Shown: piece after piece, positions 12,571 to 57,706 of the stretch
Numbering within the stretch: the first letter of the stretch is position 1
Layout: each line of letters opens with the position of its first letter
Sequence record: PX645697.1
Source of the DNA: a phage
Length of the DNA: 64,000 nt
Direction: 5' to 3' (one strand)
Position numbers and translations under genes: made by a program
Notes under the pieces: generated by a model
Database searches by the model: none
Told to the model about the DNA's origin: nothing
The model's input: the letters and a program-made list of their open reading frames with translations, nothing else

Positions 12571-12579
12571 TAATGTATA
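12571..12579 (+). promoter_or_regulatory. TAATGTATA motif, candidate phage-specific promoter element
   Basis: Exact 9-mer recurring 35-60 nt upstream of start codons at four other sites; lies 38 nt upstream of the ATG at 12618. Confidence 0.35.
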
Positions 12580-12617
12580 TAGGGGGTAGGACATTTTTAT
12601 TTATAAAAGGAGACGTT

Positions 12618-15600
12618 ATGGCTAACATTAAACCGTGGGAAGAAGCTTCCAAAGCTCCTGCGTATCTGAATGCCTCTCCGGAGCAGCAAGCTCAAATGAG
12701 AGAACAATATAAGGCAGCAGGTGGCTCTATTCCTGAGGAACAGCCAGTAGCACAACCACAACAAGAAGAACGTGGTGTTATAGGTGAGTTTGCTCAAGGT
12801 GTGTCAAATGCTCTTCAATCTGGTGGTGCAAATATTGCAGCTAGTGCTGCTAAAGGTATTGGTGGTTTAGTTGAGATTGGTGAGAATCTAGCTGGAGCAC
12901 AGACTAGTTATGGTAAGCGTATCCAAGAGAACTCTCAGAACCTTCTGAAAGAACGTATGGATAAGATTGAGGATGGGATTGGCAAAACTGTCGGTCAGTA
13001 TGCTGGCGTTGCTGGTGATATCGGTTTGACAGTTGCTAACCCATTGGCTGCTGCTGCTATCATCGCAGGTCGTGAGACAGGTCGTGCATATGCAGACCAA
13101 ACCCCTGAAGAGGGGGAAGATAAGTCTATTCTAGATGCAGCCTTAGTTGGTGGTGCTAACTACGCGGCTATGAGAATCCTTCCGGGTGCTGTTGGTACAG
13201 CTGAGTCCACACTTGGACGTATTGGTCAGAACGTTGCTACTAACGCAGTGGCTGGTGCTAAGGGCGGGGCTCTTATAGGTGCTGCTGAAGCTCAGAACAA
13301 GTATGGTGATGACAATGATCTAGCTAAGACATTGGAAGGTGTTATCGAAGAAGGAGCTATGGGTGCTGCATTTGGTGGTGCAGTTGGTGGGGTTCATGGT
13401 TTGATTAGCCGTCCGGATTCTGCTGTCTTCAGGAATACTCCAGAGTATGCGAAGACTGATATTGCTGCTGATGATGAACTGATTCGTAGTGCTAAGAATA
13501 TTGATGAGCTGAAAGAGGCTTACTCTAAAGCTGAAACTGCTAACGCTGCTTCTGCTCTGAACCTTCTCGATGAGAATGGATTCCGTATTACAGATGCTGT
13601 TGCTGTAGATTCTCCTGCTGCTCAGCGTATTCTTAATACTGACCAAGCTCGTGCTGAGAAAGCTGCTTCTGTTCAGAAAGAACATTCCAACATTCCTGGC
13701 CTTAATCCTTTAGCTTCTCCTGCTAAAACTCGTGGTAAAGCTTTCGCTGATAATGAGCACAACCAGAAACAGGCTGTTGCTATGAAGGATGCAATGGCTG
13801 ACTACACCAAGGATAATACTAAAACTCTTACAGATGTTCTAGATAACCTAGACCGTGAATTAACATCTCTCCGAGCTTCTGGTGATTTTACCGGTAGTCC
13901 GATTGACATTAAGAACCGTACGCAAGCTGACCGTGATTTCATTGATGCTTACAAGACTTTCTACAATGAAGCAAATCGATTCAAAGCTCGTGATGGGGAA
14001 GACTTTAATAACTTTGTAGAGAAAGCTACTGAACTACAGAAGATGGCTGATAATGTTTCTCCAGAGATGAAGAAAGCTATTGGTGGGTTGAAGAAACTGA
14101 AAGGTATGCCTGAAGGTTTTAATCCTATCCAAGATGCTTACACTCTGAACAATACAGCTAAATTCATGAGCAACCAAGATCGTGGCTGGACTTCCCTGAC
14201 TGATGATGGCTTCCGTGAGGCTTCTTCACCTAGTCTGGTAATGAACACTCTTGGTGCTGCTAAATATGCTCTGAATCGCTTCTCTTCTCAGCGTGCTCGC
14301 TCTCAACGTGTTAAGCAACAAGAATCTAACAGTGAAGCTATCCGCTCTCTAGCTCGTGGTGATTTGGAAGTTGCTCGTGCTAAATCCGCTGCTGATGAAG
14401 CTCGCACTAAGATGGAAGAAGAACCAGCTGTTGATGACATTAATTTTAAGACGCAAAATGATGTGGAAACTGAACCGGTTCGGGAGCCTTCTTCTAGTAC
14501 TGTGACGGGAGAAAATCTTCCTTCTTCTGCTCCTCAAGAAGCTCCTCTTACAGCTCGTGATTTAGTTGCTCAAAGACGTGCTATCCGTCAGGCTGAACAG
14601 CGTCGCGCTGAAGAAGAGGCATTGGCTGCTCAAGAAGCTCCGGTTGAACAGGCTCCACAAGCTGAACCTCTCCCTGCTCGTAATCCTTTAGAGGAGCGTC
14701 GTGTATTAGAGCAGCAACGTGCTCAAGAAGAGGGCCAAAAGGCTTCATCAGAGGATGCATCTTCTGTTACTAAAGAATCTCTCTCTCACTATGCTGAAGA
14801 TGGGATACTTTCTCAAGATTTAAATGGCAACATTGCCCTTCGCCTAAATCAGTTCACCCCGGCTGAGCAACAGTTTTTGCGTAACCATAATTTGGTTGAC
14901 TCAAATGATATGGTCAAAGCTAGTTCTCTAAGACAAGCTGATCCATTACCTACCCGTGCCCCTAAAGCTCCTAAAGAAGAGGTACAGGACGTTAAACCGG
15001 CAAGTGGTGTAGAACGTTTAGCTGCTATGTCTAGTGCTGCTCGTCAGGCTACTAAAGATCGTGCAGAACGCTTTGCTCGTTCTCTGTACTCTAAGGCTGC
15101 TAAGGCTAAAGCTACTGCTGAGAACTTCTTGTCTTACAAGGGTGATCCTAAGGAGTTGATGCGTCGTATTCGTCAGGAAGATAATGCTATCAACACTGAA
15201 CGTCATGAAGAAATGGCTCGTAACCAGCTGGCTTCTCAGCAAGGTATTGCTACTGCTAAGAACAACACTGTACGAACTAACTTTGCTGAATGGGTTAAAG
15301 AACGTGGTCTGCCAGAAGACATTGCTACTAAGGCATTACGTGCTGAAGAGAAAGGTTTAGGTGGGAACGTAACTAACTTGGATAGTCTGAAACGTCGTGC
15401 TGAAAGGTTGTATCAGAAGCAGCGTGAAGATGAGTTTGATAGACTGTACCAACAAGCTCTAGAAGAGAATAAAGCTTTCGATAACAAGAATGCTCCTAAG
15501 CTGGTTGACCAGAAGAAAGAGTTTCAGTCTGAGATTGATACTTTGATTGATGCAGAACCTTTACGTCCTGCTCAGAAAGACGCTATGCGTAAATTGATGA

Positions 15601-17198
15601 ATGACTTTGTAGATGGAAAGTTTAAATCTTCAGAGAAGGCTGGTAGGGAAGAGGCTTTGGAAGTTGGTCAGATGAAGGATATTTGGGATGGGTTTATTAA
15701 CACCTATAACAGAGAAGTGAATGCCTTCAACAAAGCTAACAAGAACTCTCAGTACGAAGCTGCTGCTAAGCATTTACAGGCTCGTGAAGAACGTCTTGCT
15801 ACACTCAGGAAAAAGGCTCAGGCTCGTTCGGATGCTAAAGCTGCTGTTGAGAATGAACGTAAAACTCTAGAGGCTATTGCAGCTCAGAAGAGTGAGATTG
15901 AGAAGATGATGGAAGGTTTACCTAAACCTGTTCGTGAGGCTCAGGAATCTCGTACACTGAAACAGTTGGCTGCTCACCACGATAAGAACTCTCCAGTTCC
16001 TCCAGAGAAGTTCCGTAGTTACATTGAACGTATCCATAACGCCGAGTCAGACTACCTTGATCGTCAGCGTCGTTTAACTGATGCAGAGGAAGATGCTCGT
16101 CAGGCTAAGTGGAACAAGATGTATGAGCAAGCGGAAGAGATGAACCGCAAGTTTGATGTGGACAAGAGAGTTAAGCGCAGTGAAGAGCTTAAAGCGGCCC
16201 AAGAGCGTGAGAATGATCTTATGGCAGTACAACGTCAACGTGATGATATTCATCGCCGCCTGATGCGTACTATGGAAGATAAGGGCATATCTAGAGAGGA
16301 TGCTGAAGCGTTTGCCGGCTCCTATATGGATAACCGTTATGCACTTCTTGAGAAACCTATGACTCCGACTGAACATCAGAATGCTCGTTCTCGTATCGAA
16401 GCTGATGTTGAGAAATTCGCTAAGAAGTATGAATCAATGACTCCTATTGAGAAAGAGATTGTTAAGGTTACTGGAGATACTGAAGGTAAGCTTGATAACT
16501 TGGATGCGGATACTAGGAAGGCTATTGAGGAGGCTCAGAAGGTTGACTCTGATATTAAGAAACTGCAAGAGGAAGAATTGGAGATGGAGAAGATTCGTTC
16601 TGCTCTGCCTGACGATGAAAAATCTCAAGCAAATTCTGATATCTTGGAAAGCATTAAACAACAGGAAGAGGTCTTTGCTGATAAAGTAGAGAAAGCTTTC
16701 TTGAGTGGGAAAAGCTTGGATGAGTTGGCTAGTGTGGCTGAAGTTTTAGACAGGGTTCATGGTGCAGATAAGGCTGGTAACAACCGTCGCTTTGTACGTG
16801 CATTGCAGACTGCTGCTGAAAACAAGAAGAAGTATGGTGATAATCCGGTAGCTTGGTTTAGTGCTGATGATTATTCTGCTATTGCTAAACTTGGCGCTTC
16901 TTCCGCAGGTGGTAACAAATCTAGAGCATTGGAGAAAATCTTTGGTTCTACAGCTGAACAGGCTAAGAGTAAGTTGCTTGGTAGGGATGATGTAGCGAAG
17001 ATGAGACGTGTAATTGAAGAGAACCCTGATGTTAAGATTCCTTCTTACAAGACAACGAATCGTACTGAGTACTTGCAGTTCTTGGAGAAGTTTAATGACG
17101 AAGGGAAGCCGAAGATTAAACGTGGCTCATTGTCAGAGAAGCTTGAACGCAGTAAGCGTCAATCGAGACTCCGTGTAAGAGTTCGACCTAAGGAGTGA
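12618..17198 (+). CDS. very large internal virion / ejection-type protein (about 1526 aa), coiled-coil rich
   Basis: Track ORF 12573..17198; start moved to ATG 12618 with AAGGAG 5 nt upstream, because the track start overlaps the TAATGTATA motif. Confidence 0.5.
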   Translation: MANIKPWEEASKAPAYLNASPEQQAQMREQYKAAGGSIPEEQPVAQPQQEERGVIGEFAQGVSNALQSGGANIAASAAKGIGGLVEIGENLAGAQTSYGKRIQENSQNLLKERMDKIEDGIGKTVGQYAGVAGDIGLTVANPLAAAAIIAGRETGRAYADQTPEEGEDKSILDAALVGGANYAAMRILPGAVGTAESTLGRIGQNVATNAVAGAKGGALIGAAEAQNKYGDDNDLAKTLEGVIEEGAMGAAFGGAVGGVHGLISRPDSAVFRNTPEYAKTDIAADDELIRSAKNIDELKEAYSKAETANAASALNLLDENGFRITDAVAVDSPAAQRILNTDQARAEKAASVQKEHSNIPGLNPLASPAKTRGKAFADNEHNQKQAVAMKDAMADYTKDNTKTLTDVLDNLDRELTSLRASGDFTGSPIDIKNRTQADRDFIDAYKTFYNEANRFKARDGEDFNNFVEKATELQKMADNVSPEMKKAIGGLKKLKGMPEGFNPIQDAYTLNNTAKFMSNQDRGWTSLTDDGFREASSPSLVMNTLGAAKYALNRFSSQRARSQRVKQQESNSEAIRSLARGDLEVARAKSAADEARTKMEEEPAVDDINFKTQNDVETEPVREPSSSTVTGENLPSSAPQEAPLTARDLVAQRRAIRQAEQRRAEEEALAAQEAPVEQAPQAEPLPARNPLEERRVLEQQRAQEEGQKASSEDASSVTKESLSHYAEDGILSQDLNGNIALRLNQFTPAEQQFLRNHNLVDSNDMVKASSLRQADPLPTRAPKAPKEEVQDVKPASGVERLAAMSSAARQATKDRAERFARSLYSKAAKAKATAENFLSYKGDPKELMRRIRQEDNAINTERHEEMARNQLASQQGIATAKNNTVRTNFAEWVKERGLPEDIATKALRAEEKGLGGNVTNLDSLKRRAERLYQKQREDEFDRLYQQALEENKAFDNKNAPKLVDQKKEFQSEIDTLIDAEPLRPAQKDAMRKLMNDFVDGKFKSSEKAGREEALEVGQMKDIWDGFINTYNREVNAFNKANKNSQYEAAAKHLQAREERLATLRKKAQARSDAKAAVENERKTLEAIAAQKSEIEKMMEGLPKPVREAQESRTLKQLAAHHDKNSPVPPEKFRSYIERIHNAESDYLDRQRRLTDAEEDARQAKWNKMYEQAEEMNRKFDVDKRVKRSEELKAAQERENDLMAVQRQRDDIHRRLMRTMEDKGISREDAEAFAGSYMDNRYALLEKPMTPTEHQNARSRIEADVEKFAKKYESMTPIEKEIVKVTGDTEGKLDNLDADTRKAIEEAQKVDSDIKKLQEEELEMEKIRSALPDDEKSQANSDILESIKQQEEVFADKVEKAFLSGKSLDELASVAEVLDRVHGADKAGNNRRFVRALQTAAENKKKYGDNPVAWFSADDYSAIAKLGASSAGGNKSRALEKIFGSTAEQAKSKLLGRDDVAKMRRVIEENPDVKIPSYKTTNRTEYLQFLEKFNDEGKPKIKRGSLSEKLERSKRQSRLRVRVRPKE

Positions 17199-23618: not shown

Positions 23619-23840
23619 TTATGCCACATCTCCTTGTTTATTGTTAATAACATCCAGTGCTGTATAAGCTTTACCTGTTCCTAAGTATTCCAGAACTGGA
23701 GGACTCTTCTTTTCTTCAGCGACTACATAAGGTGTGATTTTTCCTTTCAGTACAGCCTGAGATGCTTTAGCACTATCTTCAGATGTGTGAATAGTAGTAA
23801 GCCCTTTCTTCCCAATTCTATAAGTGTGAACCCAAATCAT
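23619..23840 (-). CDS. hypothetical protein
   Basis: Track ORF in array. Confidence 0.35.
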   Translation of the reverse strand: MIWVHTYRIGKKGLTTIHTSEDSAKASQAVLKGKITPYVVAEEKKSPPVLEYLGTGKAYTALDVINNKQGDVA

Positions 23841-23842
23841 TC

Positions 23843-24004
23843 TTATTCCTCATATTCCCAATTTCTTTCATAATATCCAGAGTTGTAGTTTAGGGCGCAC
23901 CTCTCGGCCTCTTCTATGTCGTCAGTGTTTAGGATATTTACCCATCCTCCAACTTCATCAAAACCTTCTTCTACTTCGTTAAACCATACACTATACTTTT
24001 TCAT
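23843..24004 (-). CDS. hypothetical protein
   Basis: Track ORF trimmed to ATG 24004, which overlaps the stop of the upstream small gene as ATGA. Confidence 0.35.
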   Translation of the reverse strand: MKKYSVWFNEVEEGFDEVGGWVNILNTDDIEEAERCALNYNSGYYERNWEYEE

Positions 24005-24177
24005 CGAGAAGTTCTTCCCCAATCTTTTACATAGCATCGACCGTTAACCCACTTTGTCTCTGACTTAAATTCTTGAGACAATCTCACTTCACAGTCTTCT
24101 CTACTGGCATCTCCTCCGATATCAATCAGATACAGGAATAGAGCTATACCTAAAGCCCAAAGAATTATCTTCTTCAT
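24001..24177 (-). CDS. small membrane protein, 58 aa (not in ORF track)
   Basis: Hand translation MKKIILWALGIALFLYLIDIGG...; ATG overlaps stop of the HAD gene (ATGA) and its stop overlaps the next start. Confidence 0.45.
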   Translation of the reverse strand: MKKIILWALGIALFLYLIDIGGDASREDCEVRLSQEFKSETKWVNGRCYVKDWGRTSR

Positions 24178-50052: not shown

Positions 50053-50166
50053 ATTTCCTCTCATTGAATTTAAAAAAGGACTCTCCTAAAAGAGCCAAGC
50101 TTTAAATCCAAAAAAAGATATTACCCAATATCTGTGGATAACCTGCTCTTAAAATATCTATCCGAC

Positions 50167-50281
50167 GGATGTTCGAGGATTATTCCTCTCCCTAGCATCG
50201 GCCCCATACGGGAAATATATTAAGATTAGGTTAGTTGAGCCAGAATAGCTCACATAGCCCTCTGATACTCACAAGGGCTAT
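50167..50281 (-). repeat. conserved 3' element, copy A (GGATGTTCGAG, CTCTCCCTAGC blocks and 8-bp-stem hairpin ATAGCCCT/AGGGCTAT)
   Basis: Hairpin begins 5 nt after stop of gene 50287..50538; element repeated at 55248-55348. Confidence 0.5.
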
Positions 50282-50286
50282 AGATG

Positions 50287-50538
50287 TTACTCTGTGGCTC
50301 CGTCGAAGCGGAGGATTGCTGTTGGAACAGGAATCACAACCATATCAATCTCTAAACGGAAGAGATGACCCGTACTTAGCTGAACTGCTGTTACCGGTTT
50401 AGCGATACCACCAACAGATGCTGAGGGGATTCGAATAAAGAAATCCCCCGGATATTCCGTTGCACGAAATACATCTCCCGGTGACATATCCTTTACTTGG
50501 ATAATTGATTCAGGAGGGGTTTTATTAGCAATTTGCAT
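50287..50538 (-). CDS. small protein, early-region paralog family
   Basis: ...VKDMSPGDVFRATEYPGDFFIRI... Confidence 0.4.
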   Translation of the reverse strand: MQIANKTPPESIIQVKDMSPGDVFRATEYPGDFFIRIPSASVGGIAKPVTAVQLSTGHLFRLEIDMVVIPVPTAILRFDGATE

Positions 50539-50771
50539 TACAGACCTTTCTTAGCACGATCTTTGGCAGTTTTACCAGTGCGGATGCGATGGGAAACGTT
50601 AACCAGAGTGCCACCGTCAACCACGGTAACGCTCTTGTTTTTAGCCAGATCGAACACAGTCTTCTCTGTGCCACCCAAGCGAATTTGCTTAGGTTCACTG
50701 AAGGTTTGGGTTGATTTGGATTGGAACTGGAACGGTTGACGGATTGCATCAATTGCACTTACTTTAGACAT
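50538..50771 (-). CDS. hypothetical protein
   Basis: Track ORF; stop overlaps next start (TAATG). Confidence 0.4.
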   Translation of the reverse strand: MSKVSAIDAIRQPFQFQSKSTQTFSEPKQIRLGGTEKTVFDLAKNKSVTVVDGGTLVNVSHRIRTGKTAKDRAKKGL

Positions 50772-51005
50772 AGGGGAAATTCCTTAAAAAGTCATGGCTG
50801 CGTAGAGGGAATTCCCTACGCAAATTGGGCCGCCCACAGAGAGGCGTCATAGTACTAAAAGGAGGAGAGAAGAGGGCTTATTTAGCTACCTTTTTCTGTC
50901 CGTTTACAAACCAGATGATTGAACCATCAGGCTGCCGTTGACCGAAGCCTTTCATGTTGGTCATTTCTTCTGTAGAATCATTAAATGTGATCACTTGTTT
51001 TCCTA

Positions 51006-54849: not shown

Positions 54850-55247
54850 CTTTATTAAATCAGTTATTGTAAACCCAACCACCTTGACGTTTACGGATGT
54901 TACCCATCAGACGCAGCATGGCAGATTCAATCTTCAGAGCACCATTTGTTACTGCATCCATACGTTCAGGGCGGTTCATACGTTTGGTTGATACTTTCAT
55001 ACACATCTCTCTTTGTTAGTGGAGGCATTATTGCCAGTTGATATAAGGGATAGCCCTAGTCAGGAGGCTAATTCTGACCGCGCACTCATTGCCGACCTTC
55101 TCTGCCTAAGAGTTCAGGTTCTAGAGCTATCTCTTATCCCAACTGGTGAAGACTCCCTACCCCTAGGAAGTCTCCTGAATCCCAAACCAATATGTACCCC
55201 TACATATCGGAAATCTTTCGAAAATTAACAGGTTTTAGTCTAGCACC

Positions 55248-55348
55248 GGATGTTCGAGCAAGCTCTCCCTAGCGGTGTGGCATATGCCTGAATTAATAAG
55301 TTAATGAGGAACACCCTCACATAGCCCTCTGATAAACACAAGGGCTAT
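55248..55348 (-). repeat. conserved 3' element, copy B
   Basis: Same three blocks and ATAGCCCT/AGGGCTAT hairpin, ending 9 nt after stop of gene 55358..55576. Confidence 0.5.
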
Positions 55349-55357
55349 AAGTCGGTG

Positions 55358-55576
55358 TTACTTTTGAGTCACATGAAGATCAGGGCGAGGTGTAACAGTG
55401 GTGCCACCCTTAAAAAGACCAACATAACCAGTACGAAGATTGGCTGCTTTATGTGAACCATTATTTGCTACCTCTTCAAGCAGCAACCAGAACCGGCTAT
55501 CATAAAAGAAAACCGACCCACTTTCTAGATCACATATTTTTGAAAACTTAAGAGGTTTACCTTCATTGATTTCCAT
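55358..55576 (-). CDS. small protein, early-region paralog family
   Basis: ...ICDLESGSVFFYDSRFWLLLEE... Confidence 0.4.
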   Translation of the reverse strand: MEINEGKPLKFSKICDLESGSVFFYDSRFWLLLEEVANNGSHKAANLRTGYVGLFKGGTTVTPRPDLHVTQK

Positions 55577-56935: not shown

Positions 56936-56984
56936 TAGCTGTGCCGTTGTTATCAGAACTTGATACCTCCTGTTTTACGGGCAT

Positions 56985-57010
56985 AAAAAAGCCCCAGCCG
57001 TAGCCGGGGC
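56985..57010 (-). terminator. rho-independent terminator
   Basis: Minus-strand GCCCC-10 nt loop-GGGGC followed by UUUUUU. Confidence 0.5.
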
Positions 57011-57262
57011 GGTTATTAACGTGATACTGCTTCCATGAATCCTATCATAAGTATCAATAAGGTGATAATAACACCAAAAAGCATACCACATAGGAAGAAA
57101 GATCCACCTTCCCCTAGATATGAAATAGCTGATTCCACGGATAACTCCTACAGCAACGCAAAAAGCCGCTCAAAGGCGGCTATGCGGAAGCTTCAAATGG
57201 GGAGAGGGCACGACGCGACAGAAAGAGCGTCATAGTACTAAAAGAGGGGGCTGTATTCCCTA

Positions 57263-57706
57263 CTACTTTACCCTTGCTTCTTTGATGGGGTCAATGTATT
57301 TTTCAACGCCCCACTTGTGTTTACTGTCAGCGTAGAAAACATCAGGTGCGCACTGACTAGTCTTAGGGAAAGCCTGCGGGTCTTTCGTGCTACCCTTAGA
57401 CTTCTGTTTACCTCGGGTGCGACCATTACAGAAGATTTCTAACTTCTTCTCCTCTTCTGTTTTAGCTCCCCCGCTCTTTAACAAAGAACGTTTATGATCG
57501 GCTAACAATAACGCATCAGCACGATGAACGCGATGGCCTACACGTTTTGCCACACTAGAAGGGATATAGGATTCAGCTTCAGCCCTTGCAGCACGACGTT
57601 TTAAACTGCGCTTACTAATGTAATTGGTTGCCTTCGGCTTCTCTTTCTCCAGTTCAGAGATAGAAAAACAACGCCCGCCCTTCATGCTGATTTTAGATTT
57701 AGTCAC
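57263..57706 (-). CDS. basic hypothetical protein
   Basis: Track ORF, K/R-rich. Confidence 0.35.
   Translation of the reverse strand: MTKSKISMKGGRCFSISELEKEKPKATNYISKRSLKRRAARAEAESYIPSSVAKRVGHRVHRADALLLADHKRSLLKSGGAKTEEEKKLEIFCNGRTRGKQKSKGSTKDPQAFPKTSQCAPDVFYADSKHKWGVEKYIDPIKEARVK

Follow-up and report, generated by a model that had tools for sequence, protein, structure and literature searches.

The packaged DNA of T5, the phiKMV-like phages, and the LUZ24-like phages carries nicks at specific sites. These have been known for decades, and packaging, ejection, recombination, and defence evasion have all been proposed as their role, with no agreement on a function. In phage tf of Pseudomonas putida, 14 nicks have been mapped, every one of them at 5'-TACT/RTGMC-3' on one strand; the cut, positioned by primer extension, falls after the fourth base, always with a purine on its 3' side, and leaves ligatable 3'-OH and 5'-P ends in virion DNA, which ligase can repair. 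According to the same report, PaP3, LUZ24, and MR299-2 carry 8 to 9 copies of the tf-type motif, mostly as TACTATGAC, and, where relatives have been tested, stable ligatable nicks are present at the motif in >90% of molecules. Here we describe an 18-mer present in two exact intergenic copies in a 64,000-nucleotide (nt) stretch of sequence record PX645697.1, referred to below as the window, from a phage. The core of this repeat matches the tf consensus, and the motif is probably a localized nick site of the LUZ24-like/tf type.

Further examples of this nick motif come from sequencing reads. The LUZ24-like Pseudomonas aeruginosa phage P1-14Or01 shows 8 read pile-ups at GTACTATGAC, phage Ab22 shows read pile-ups at GTACTATGAC or GTACTGTGAC, and phage Rembedalsseter shows 13 coverage drops in Oxford Nanopore Technologies data at WACTRTGAC, on one strand, with the motif being enriched in 61 related phages. 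In the survey by Dougherty et al., which covered the 250 phages nearest a Pseudomonas phage, enrichment was seen only in the 61-phage cluster that contains that phage and tf. The nicks of T5 and BF23 (R/GCGCRGG) and of the phiKMV-like phages (CGACxxxxxCCTA/CTCCGG) are likewise sequence-associated, strand-specific, and ligatable nicks in virion DNA for which no function has been agreed upon, but their consensus sequences and the phage lineages that carry them are unrelated to those considered here. The T5 nicks are described in the tf paper as dispensable. In the phiKMV-like phage phikF77, which has a different nick motif, nicks are sealed early after infection and reappear late, a timing shown for phikF77 and not for tf or the LUZ24-like phages. 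The literature that we examined names no nickase for motifs of either the LUZ24 or the phiKMV type.

By megablast, the region analysed belongs to Kuravirus, that is, to the phiEco32/SU10-like Escherichia coli podophages within the Gordonclarkvirinae, with ~91% identity. The 18-mer, GCGTCATAGTACTAAAAG on the plus strand, occurs exactly at 50844-50861 (site 1) and at 57227-57244 (site 2), as a preliminary description of the sequence had reported, and a general repeat search of the window returned the same pair. Both copies are placed in the early region, where many small genes are transcribed leftward, and both do lie between minus-strand genes, as that description had it: site 1 between a 38-amino-acid (aa) phi32_94 homolog (50878-50994) and a 77-aa phi32_93 homolog (50538-50771) and site 2 between a 147-aa phi32_120 homolog (57263-57706) and a 40-aa membrane open reading frame (ORF) (57016-57138). 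The equivalent positions in phiEco32 are between phi32_94 and phi32_93 and between phi32_120 and phi32_119, respectively. When up to 3 mismatches were allowed, the window contained 3 matches, compared with a mean of 0.06 for shuffled sequences, and 0 of 100 shuffles reached 3, in agreement with the earlier judgement that the repeat is far beyond chance. The third match, at 14491-14508, has 3 mismatches and lies on the plus strand, opposite to the first two; it had been missed by the preliminary description, which was right in counting two exact copies but did not note this related one with its exact conserved core.

Read on the coding (minus) strand, site 1 is CTTTTAGTACTATGACGC, with its core, GTACTATGACG, at 50855-50845, and fits GTACTRTGACG; site 2 has the same core at 57238-57228 on the minus strand. 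At site 3, the exact core, GTACTGTGACG, occupies 14497-14507 on the plus strand and is located inside a 1541-aa ORF (12573-17198), a late gene homologous to phi32_26, in which it reads in frame as ..S-T-V-T.., the GTG at 14502 also being in frame. The whole phiEco32 genome contains exactly 3 TACTRTGMC sites, with site 3 as the only one besides sites 1 and 2, and all 3 carry the extended context G-TACTRTGAC-G.

All three window sites match the nick consensus 5'-TACTRTGMC-3', twice as GTACTATGAC and once as GTACTGTGAC. The 9 sites of LUZ24 are all on the plus strand and all have G at position -1, and 8 of them carry the full G-TACTRTGAC-G; this extended 11-mer, which was defined from LUZ24 independently, occurs 3 times in the window, compared with 0.04 expected occurrences, and none of 100 shuffles reached 3. 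Three of the LUZ24 sites, too, lie in intergenic gaps of the early region. A tblastn comparison of LUZ24 proteins with the window gave 11 hits forming a syntenic block, which includes gp16, gp18, gp19, and gp21 (COOH-NH2 ligase, amidoligase, aminotransferase, and RimK-like ligase), an exonuclease, a split DNA polymerase, a 5'-3' exonuclease, two virion proteins, and, as the most conserved shared gene, a primase/helicase (45% identity; E = 2e-161).

The preliminary description had suggested conservation in related genomes as a check on the motif, and both intergenic regions are indeed present in ~80-100 Kuravirus and Suseptimavirus records, with site 1 being conserved in ~98 phage records; scans of IMG/VR added only 5-6 more Kuravirus contigs. 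Across Kuravirus, Suseptimavirus, and Nieuwekanaalvirus (KBNP1711), the only sequence that is invariant at both intergenic sites is [G/C]TACT[A/G]TGACG, and an 8-bp palindrome, the small ORF that starts within the motif, and most of the flanking sequence are not fixed across the three genera. KBNP1711 reads CAACTACTGTGACG at sites 1 and 2, the Suseptimavirus members SU7, Bas88, 101114, and ECBP2 read A(A/G)CTACTATGACGC at site 1 and CAACTACTATGACGC at site 2, and site 2 of phiEco32 is TACTGTGAC (TACTGT), that is, the allowed R variant. The single core base that varies is the R position of the published nick consensus. Site 3 is retained in 6 of 6 aligned sequences from Kuravirus, Suseptimavirus, and KBNP1711 despite a mean column identity of 69% around it.

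The base immediately preceding TACT (position -1) follows the lineage at all three sites, being G/G/G in Kuravirus and C/C/C in Suseptimavirus and KBNP1711 for sites 1/2/3; it is C in 7-11 and G in LUZ24. At site 3 the switch alters an amino acid (AGT, Ser, to ACT, Thr). Co-evolution with a single recognition protein would give rise to just such a pattern by lineage. We favour this simpler reading, as gene conversion between an 11-nt island inside a gene and two distant intergenic sites is unlikely, and recognition by a protein is most likely the mode of action of the motif.

The Salmonella phage 7-11 (NC_015938) is a distant relative that shares more with LUZ24 than the window does. It has 13 TACTRTGMC sites genome-wide, 12 of them on the minus strand and 11 of them reading CTACTRTGACG. 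Within its 50-kb early arm, TACTRTGACG is found 9 times, inside and between genes and in all cases on the gene-sense (minus) strand, and the number of CTACTRTGACG copies in this arm is 9, compared with 0.03 expected. Copies inside genes are in frame in 6 of 9 cases, where about half would be expected, and this is close to chance level because one of the frames contains TGA. It is this strand-specific, multi-copy 9-11-mer, indifferent to its coding context, that leads to the comparison with the LUZ24-like nick consensus. Every copy in the extended context is on the sense strand, both in the window (3/3) and in 7-11 (11/11). It is of note that in two of the early-arm copies in 7-11 (17088 and 43745; gp089 and SaPh711_xxxxx), the internal GTG or ATG of the motif is the annotated start codon.

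Taken together, the core of the motif is most likely a nick site and not a transcript signal. The observed basis for this is the identity of the core with the nick consensus, the conservation of three sites, the co-variation of the base at -1, the relatedness to LUZ24, and the one-strand enrichment in 7-11. As in the LUZ24-like (Bruynoghevirus) phages and tf, the core is identical, including the A/G position and the flanking G...G of LUZ24, and the sites are strand specific, lie mostly on the early-gene arm, are partly intergenic, and keep their positions among relatives; a syntenic block of replication and amidoligase genes is also held in common. From tf and its relatives, we infer that the DNA of the window phage is nicked, and also where and when this would happen. 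The functional unit would be the strand-specific core [G/C]TACT[A/G]TGAC(G), present in three copies, of which those at sites 1 and 2 lie on the sense strand for early genes and that at site 3 on the sense strand for a late gene. A putative phage-encoded, sequence-specific nicking activity would cut the motif strand after the fourth base (TACT/RTGAC), as in tf, and give rise to ligatable nicks in virion DNA. The predicted cuts are between 50851 and 50850 on the minus strand for site 1 (TACT/ATGAC), a position derived from the primer extension data for tf, and, by analogy with tf, between 57234 and 57233 on the minus strand for site 2 and between 14501 and 14502 on the plus strand for site 3. 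The motif family itself is already known; its occurrence in phiEco32-like phages, not described in the literature that we searched, makes them a predicted new member. We give even chances to the wider proposal that the phiEco32-like coliphages (Kuravirus, Suseptimavirus, and Nieuwekanaalvirus) and 7-11 share a LUZ24-like nicking system, with a specificity that co-evolved with its sites (G or C at -1) and with sites that follow the sense strand on both arms.

Several observations weigh against a nick site. The bare 9-mer TACTRTGMC is not enriched in the window (3 copies compared with 2.0 expected; 99 of 300 shuffles reached 3). There are only 3 sites per 77 kb, compared with 8-14 per 45 kb in the Pseudomonas phages, and the one-strand rule of tf, LUZ24, and Rembedalsseter fails, as two of the sites in the window and in phiEco32 are on the minus strand and one is on the plus strand, each following the local sense. 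The window phage also differs from the LUZ24-like phages and tf in its host, which is E. coli and not Pseudomonas, in that its sister genera have C at -1, and in that its intergenic copies add a hairpin/terminator cassette; furthermore, its nicks are predicted from the sequence, and in the literature that we searched there is no report of nicks or of a nick motif in phiEco32-like phages or 7-11. An enzyme is not apparent either: none of the 11 LUZ24 proteins shared with the window is an obvious nickase, the PD-(D/E)xK endonuclease common to 7-11 (gp029) and LUZ24 has no homolog in the window, and a Pfam search revealed only a 5'-3' exonuclease among the ORFs at 17.4-19.0 kb and the genes on either side of the sites. 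Finally, nicking leaves unexplained the 18+ nt of identity between sites 1 and 2, their constant spacing of ~20-24 nt after a stop codon, and the hairpin next to them.

These last features belong to the intergenic context of sites 1 and 2. Both sites follow the upstream gene, ~20-24 nt beyond its stop codon, in a stretch rich in C/T and poor in G; at site 1 this stretch spans 50862-50880 on the minus strand (TAAGCCCTCTTCTCTCCTC, nearly G-free, extending from that stop codon as far as the motif) and is homologous to the sequence upstream of site 2 in Suseptimavirus. In that genus, the similarity starts at the upstream stop codon (TAAGCCCTCTTCT...) and takes in the motif, and sites 1 and 2 are therefore paralogous cassettes of ~50 nt. 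The preliminary description mentioned partly similar flanks but had missed that in other lineages the similarity reaches back to the stop codon of the upstream gene. The extra identity between the two sites (18+ nt) is attributed to these paralogous intergenic cassettes, which also bear a hairpin or terminator.

The end of the motif at site 1 forms the 5' arm of a hairpin (GACGCC-tctctgtg-GGCGGC, containing a single A.G mismatch) that lies directly 3' of the site, at 50829-50848 on the minus strand. The hairpin is perfect in WFI101126, and the minimum free energy (MFE) fold shows its inner 5 pairs; the variants in other lineages were read by eye. At site 2, a hairpin at 57209-57234 on the minus strand (UAUGACGC-10 nt-GCGUCGUG) overlaps and follows the motif, and its equivalent in SU7, ECBP2, and Bas88 (GACGCTC-ttctt-GAGCGTC) has a T-run after it and, in SU7 (Suseptimavirus), carries a terminator annotation. 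A hairpin with the 5' arm GACGC(C/T) follows the motif in most lineages, in the form GACGCC...GGCG(G/T)C, GACGCT...AGCGTC, or GACGCTC...GAGCGTC. We treat this hairpin as a second feature of the intergenic cassette that stands outside the core motif family.

The main rival reading, conceivable if improbable, is that the element instead works at the level of RNA or transcription, with the single-stranded UACUAUGACGC and the hairpin on the early polycistronic transcript acting as a terminator or attenuator, a processing site, or a site for an RNA-binding or antitermination factor. The restriction of extended-context copies to the sense strand, the constant distance from the stop codon in a C/T-rich, G-poor setting, the recurrence of the GACGC(C/T) hairpin, the T-runs that follow the homologous hairpin at site 2 of SU7, ECBP2, and Bas88 and at site 1 of KBNP1711, the SU7 terminator annotation, and the presence of two terminators just downstream of site 2 would all fit such a role. 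However, the hairpin is absent at site 3, at site 2 of KBNP1711, and from the 7-11 and LUZ24 copies, all of which keep the linear core. Neither of the motif-overlapping hairpins in the window is followed by a T-run, and they do not qualify as intrinsic terminators. Single-sequence folding gave the post-motif hairpin in 4 of 6 sequences with weak z-scores of -1.4 and -1.5, RNAalifold on a MAFFT alignment found no shared pairs, the 3' arms being out of register, and neither site 1 nor site 2 has a match in Rfam to a known RNA family. The sequence of the core is that of a DNA nick site mapped in phage tf. The preliminary description had implied a signal linked to transcript starts, processing, or termination; the conservation of the core alone, the copies inside genes, and the identity with the nick consensus point elsewhere.

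About equally improbable is an alternative in which the same protein recognition serves a purpose other than a persistent nick, such as replication or priming, a checkpoint in packaging or ejection, or a recombination hot spot, with nicks being absent or transient. The conservation of the motif and its co-variation by lineage would be expected here as well, the primase/helicase is the most conserved gene shared with LUZ24, a purine invariably follows the mapped cut on its 3' side, and the low copy number and two-strand layout are unlike those of the LUZ24-like phages; in addition, no function for the nicks has been established in any system. Against this, none of these roles has positive evidence in its favour, and the relatives that were tested show stable ligatable nicks in >90% of molecules.

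Far less probable is a weak internal promoter or sigma-dependent pause, in which TACTAT or TACTGT would be read as a -10 element (TAnnnT) by the host sigma-70 RNA polymerase and would restart or pause early transcription. TACTAT keeps A2 and T6, its sole variable base is at a tolerant position, the motif is intergenic and co-oriented with the genes, and early transcripts must pass several terminators. Nevertheless, a consensus scan called neither site a sigma-70 promoter, there is no -35 element at 16-18 bp and no TGn in any lineage, a promoter at site 2 would fire directly into a terminator, and the conserved TGACG and the copies inside genes would remain unexplained. Published promoter maps for this family place the sigma-70 early promoters far upstream and include gp36-dependent tAATGTAtA promoters, with none at sites 1 or 2; neither site is in the SU10 promoter table, which covers both classes, and no AATGTA, as expected for the phage sigma factor gp36, is found within 60 nt of either site. 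Just as doubtful is a functionless remnant of duplication or gene conversion between two intergenic regions with a coincidental match to the nick consensus, which would suit the clear paralogy of sites 1 and 2 over ~50 nt in Suseptimavirus and a mosaic, rearrangement-prone region (for instance, the 1.5-kb tandem duplication in EcoN5) but is contradicted by divergence of the flanks around a core kept in three genera, an independent third copy in a gene, the strand-biased enrichment in 7-11, and an exact 10-11-nt match to a mapped motif of related phages that is very unlikely to arise by chance.

Other candidate functions were rejected. The 8-bp palindrome TAGTACTA brings to mind the operator of a dimeric regulator, a reading dismissed because the palindrome is not conserved, Suseptimavirus and KBNP1711 reading AACTACTA or AGCTACTA. 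The ATG on the minus strand inside the motif does open ORFs of 28 and 17 codons, as the preliminary description had stated, and its view that these are non-conserved and unlikely to be coding holds: from the internal ATG or GTG, the ORF ranges from 5 to 28 codons across lineages (only 5 at site 2 of phiEco32 and NJ01), there is no Shine-Dalgarno sequence, and the peptide is not conserved, which argues against a small ORF or leader peptide. The boxA consensus is CGCTCTT(T)A, followed by a boxB hairpin. A lambda-type boxA/nut element was rejected, as only site 2 is boxA-like (CGCTCTTTC), site 1 reads CGCCTCTCT, and no N-like gene was identified.

If the motif is indeed a nick site, the 50-year-old question of what such nicks are for and which enzyme makes them would become approachable by E. 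coli genetics, with a well-studied phage family, a tractable host, and, in Kuravirus, only three sites to mutate. For a direct test of the nick hypothesis, 7-11 would be the most sensitive phage. The candidates for the nickase would narrow to about one to two dozen genes common to these divergent phage groups, and a suitable filter would be genes shared by LUZ24-like, 7-11-like, and phiEco32-like phages in which changes in specificity track the G/C switch at -1. In addition, the pile-ups of reads and the drops in coverage that nick sites cause can be misread as genome termini, and nick sites may affect the use of Kuravirus in phage therapy and engineering. With regard to shared endonucleases, we noticed that LUZ24 encodes a homolog of the 7-11 gp029 endonuclease at 23756-24169 (43% identity over 141 aa), in a frame that overlaps the annotated gp42 and gp43, which suggests that the LUZ24 annotation splits or misses a gp029-type endonuclease gene. 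The first two motif copies in LUZ24 (1918 and 3341) appear by eye to sit in hairpin loops closed by GC-rich stems, such as GGGGCG-TACTATGACG-CGCCCC.

The preliminary description had also pointed out hairpins near each copy, and both are borne out. A GAATTC-centred hairpin at 50800-50822 on the minus strand (GCGTAGGGAATTCCCTCTACGC) appears in the MFE fold; it lies in the 5' leader of the phi32_93 homolog and is conserved in Kuravirus and KBNP1711, and its Suseptimavirus counterpart, GGGAAATTCCCC, is inside a gene. The other, AGCCGCC..GCGGCT with a T-run, at 57164-57181 on the minus strand (AGCCGCCTTTGAGCGGCT followed by TTTTGCG), is 46 nt downstream of site 2 and was scored as terminator-like. 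Both are separate neighbours outside the repeat.

Downstream of site 2, in the region 56940-57260, is a mosaic hot spot flanked by the terminators at 57181-57164 and 57010-56991, the contents of which differ among near-identical phages: the gene that follows the site 2 terminator is the 40-aa membrane ORF in the window and KBNP1711, a 265-aa 'tail protein/adhesin' in phiEco32, and other small ORFs in WFI101126 and EcoN5. In EcoN5, a 1.5-kb tandem duplication (13100-14730) spans site 1 together with the homologs of phi32_93 to phi32_89 and thereby adds a third 18-mer copy; its junction, a TGG microhomology, falls within the truncated homolog of phi32_88 and the 3' end of phi32_94. T4-type PeSL cassettes combine an early promoter with stem-loop repeats at mosaic junctions. 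The window cassettes resemble these in being short, repeated intergenic stem-loop cassettes in an early region of small variable genes, with variable content after site 2, but no promoter is present at the window cassettes and the core also occurs in genes. A recombination hot spot or PeSL-like junction was rejected as an explanation of the motif, the junction in EcoN5, the one rearrangement examined, being 45 nt upstream of it.

Elsewhere in the early operon, three near-consensus sigma-70 promoters (11/12 matches) on the minus strand, at 63381-63354, 60836-60808, and 60384-60356, correspond to the published early promoters. Strong intrinsic terminators, also on the minus strand, are found at 61354-61336, 58510-58483, and 54852-54829, and the published maps leave unexplained how the ~55 early genes downstream are transcribed past them. 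A second, hairpin-forming intergenic repeat of 34 nt with 94% identity is located at 50249-50282 and 55316-55349 (coding strand TATAGCCCTTGTG..TATCAGAGGGCTATGTGAG). It has no match in Rfam and may be a structured RNA. This repeat stands at the head of each of the two long non-coding gaps in the early region (50064-50287 and 55006-55358), right after the stop codon of the upstream gene, and is also present in phiEco32.

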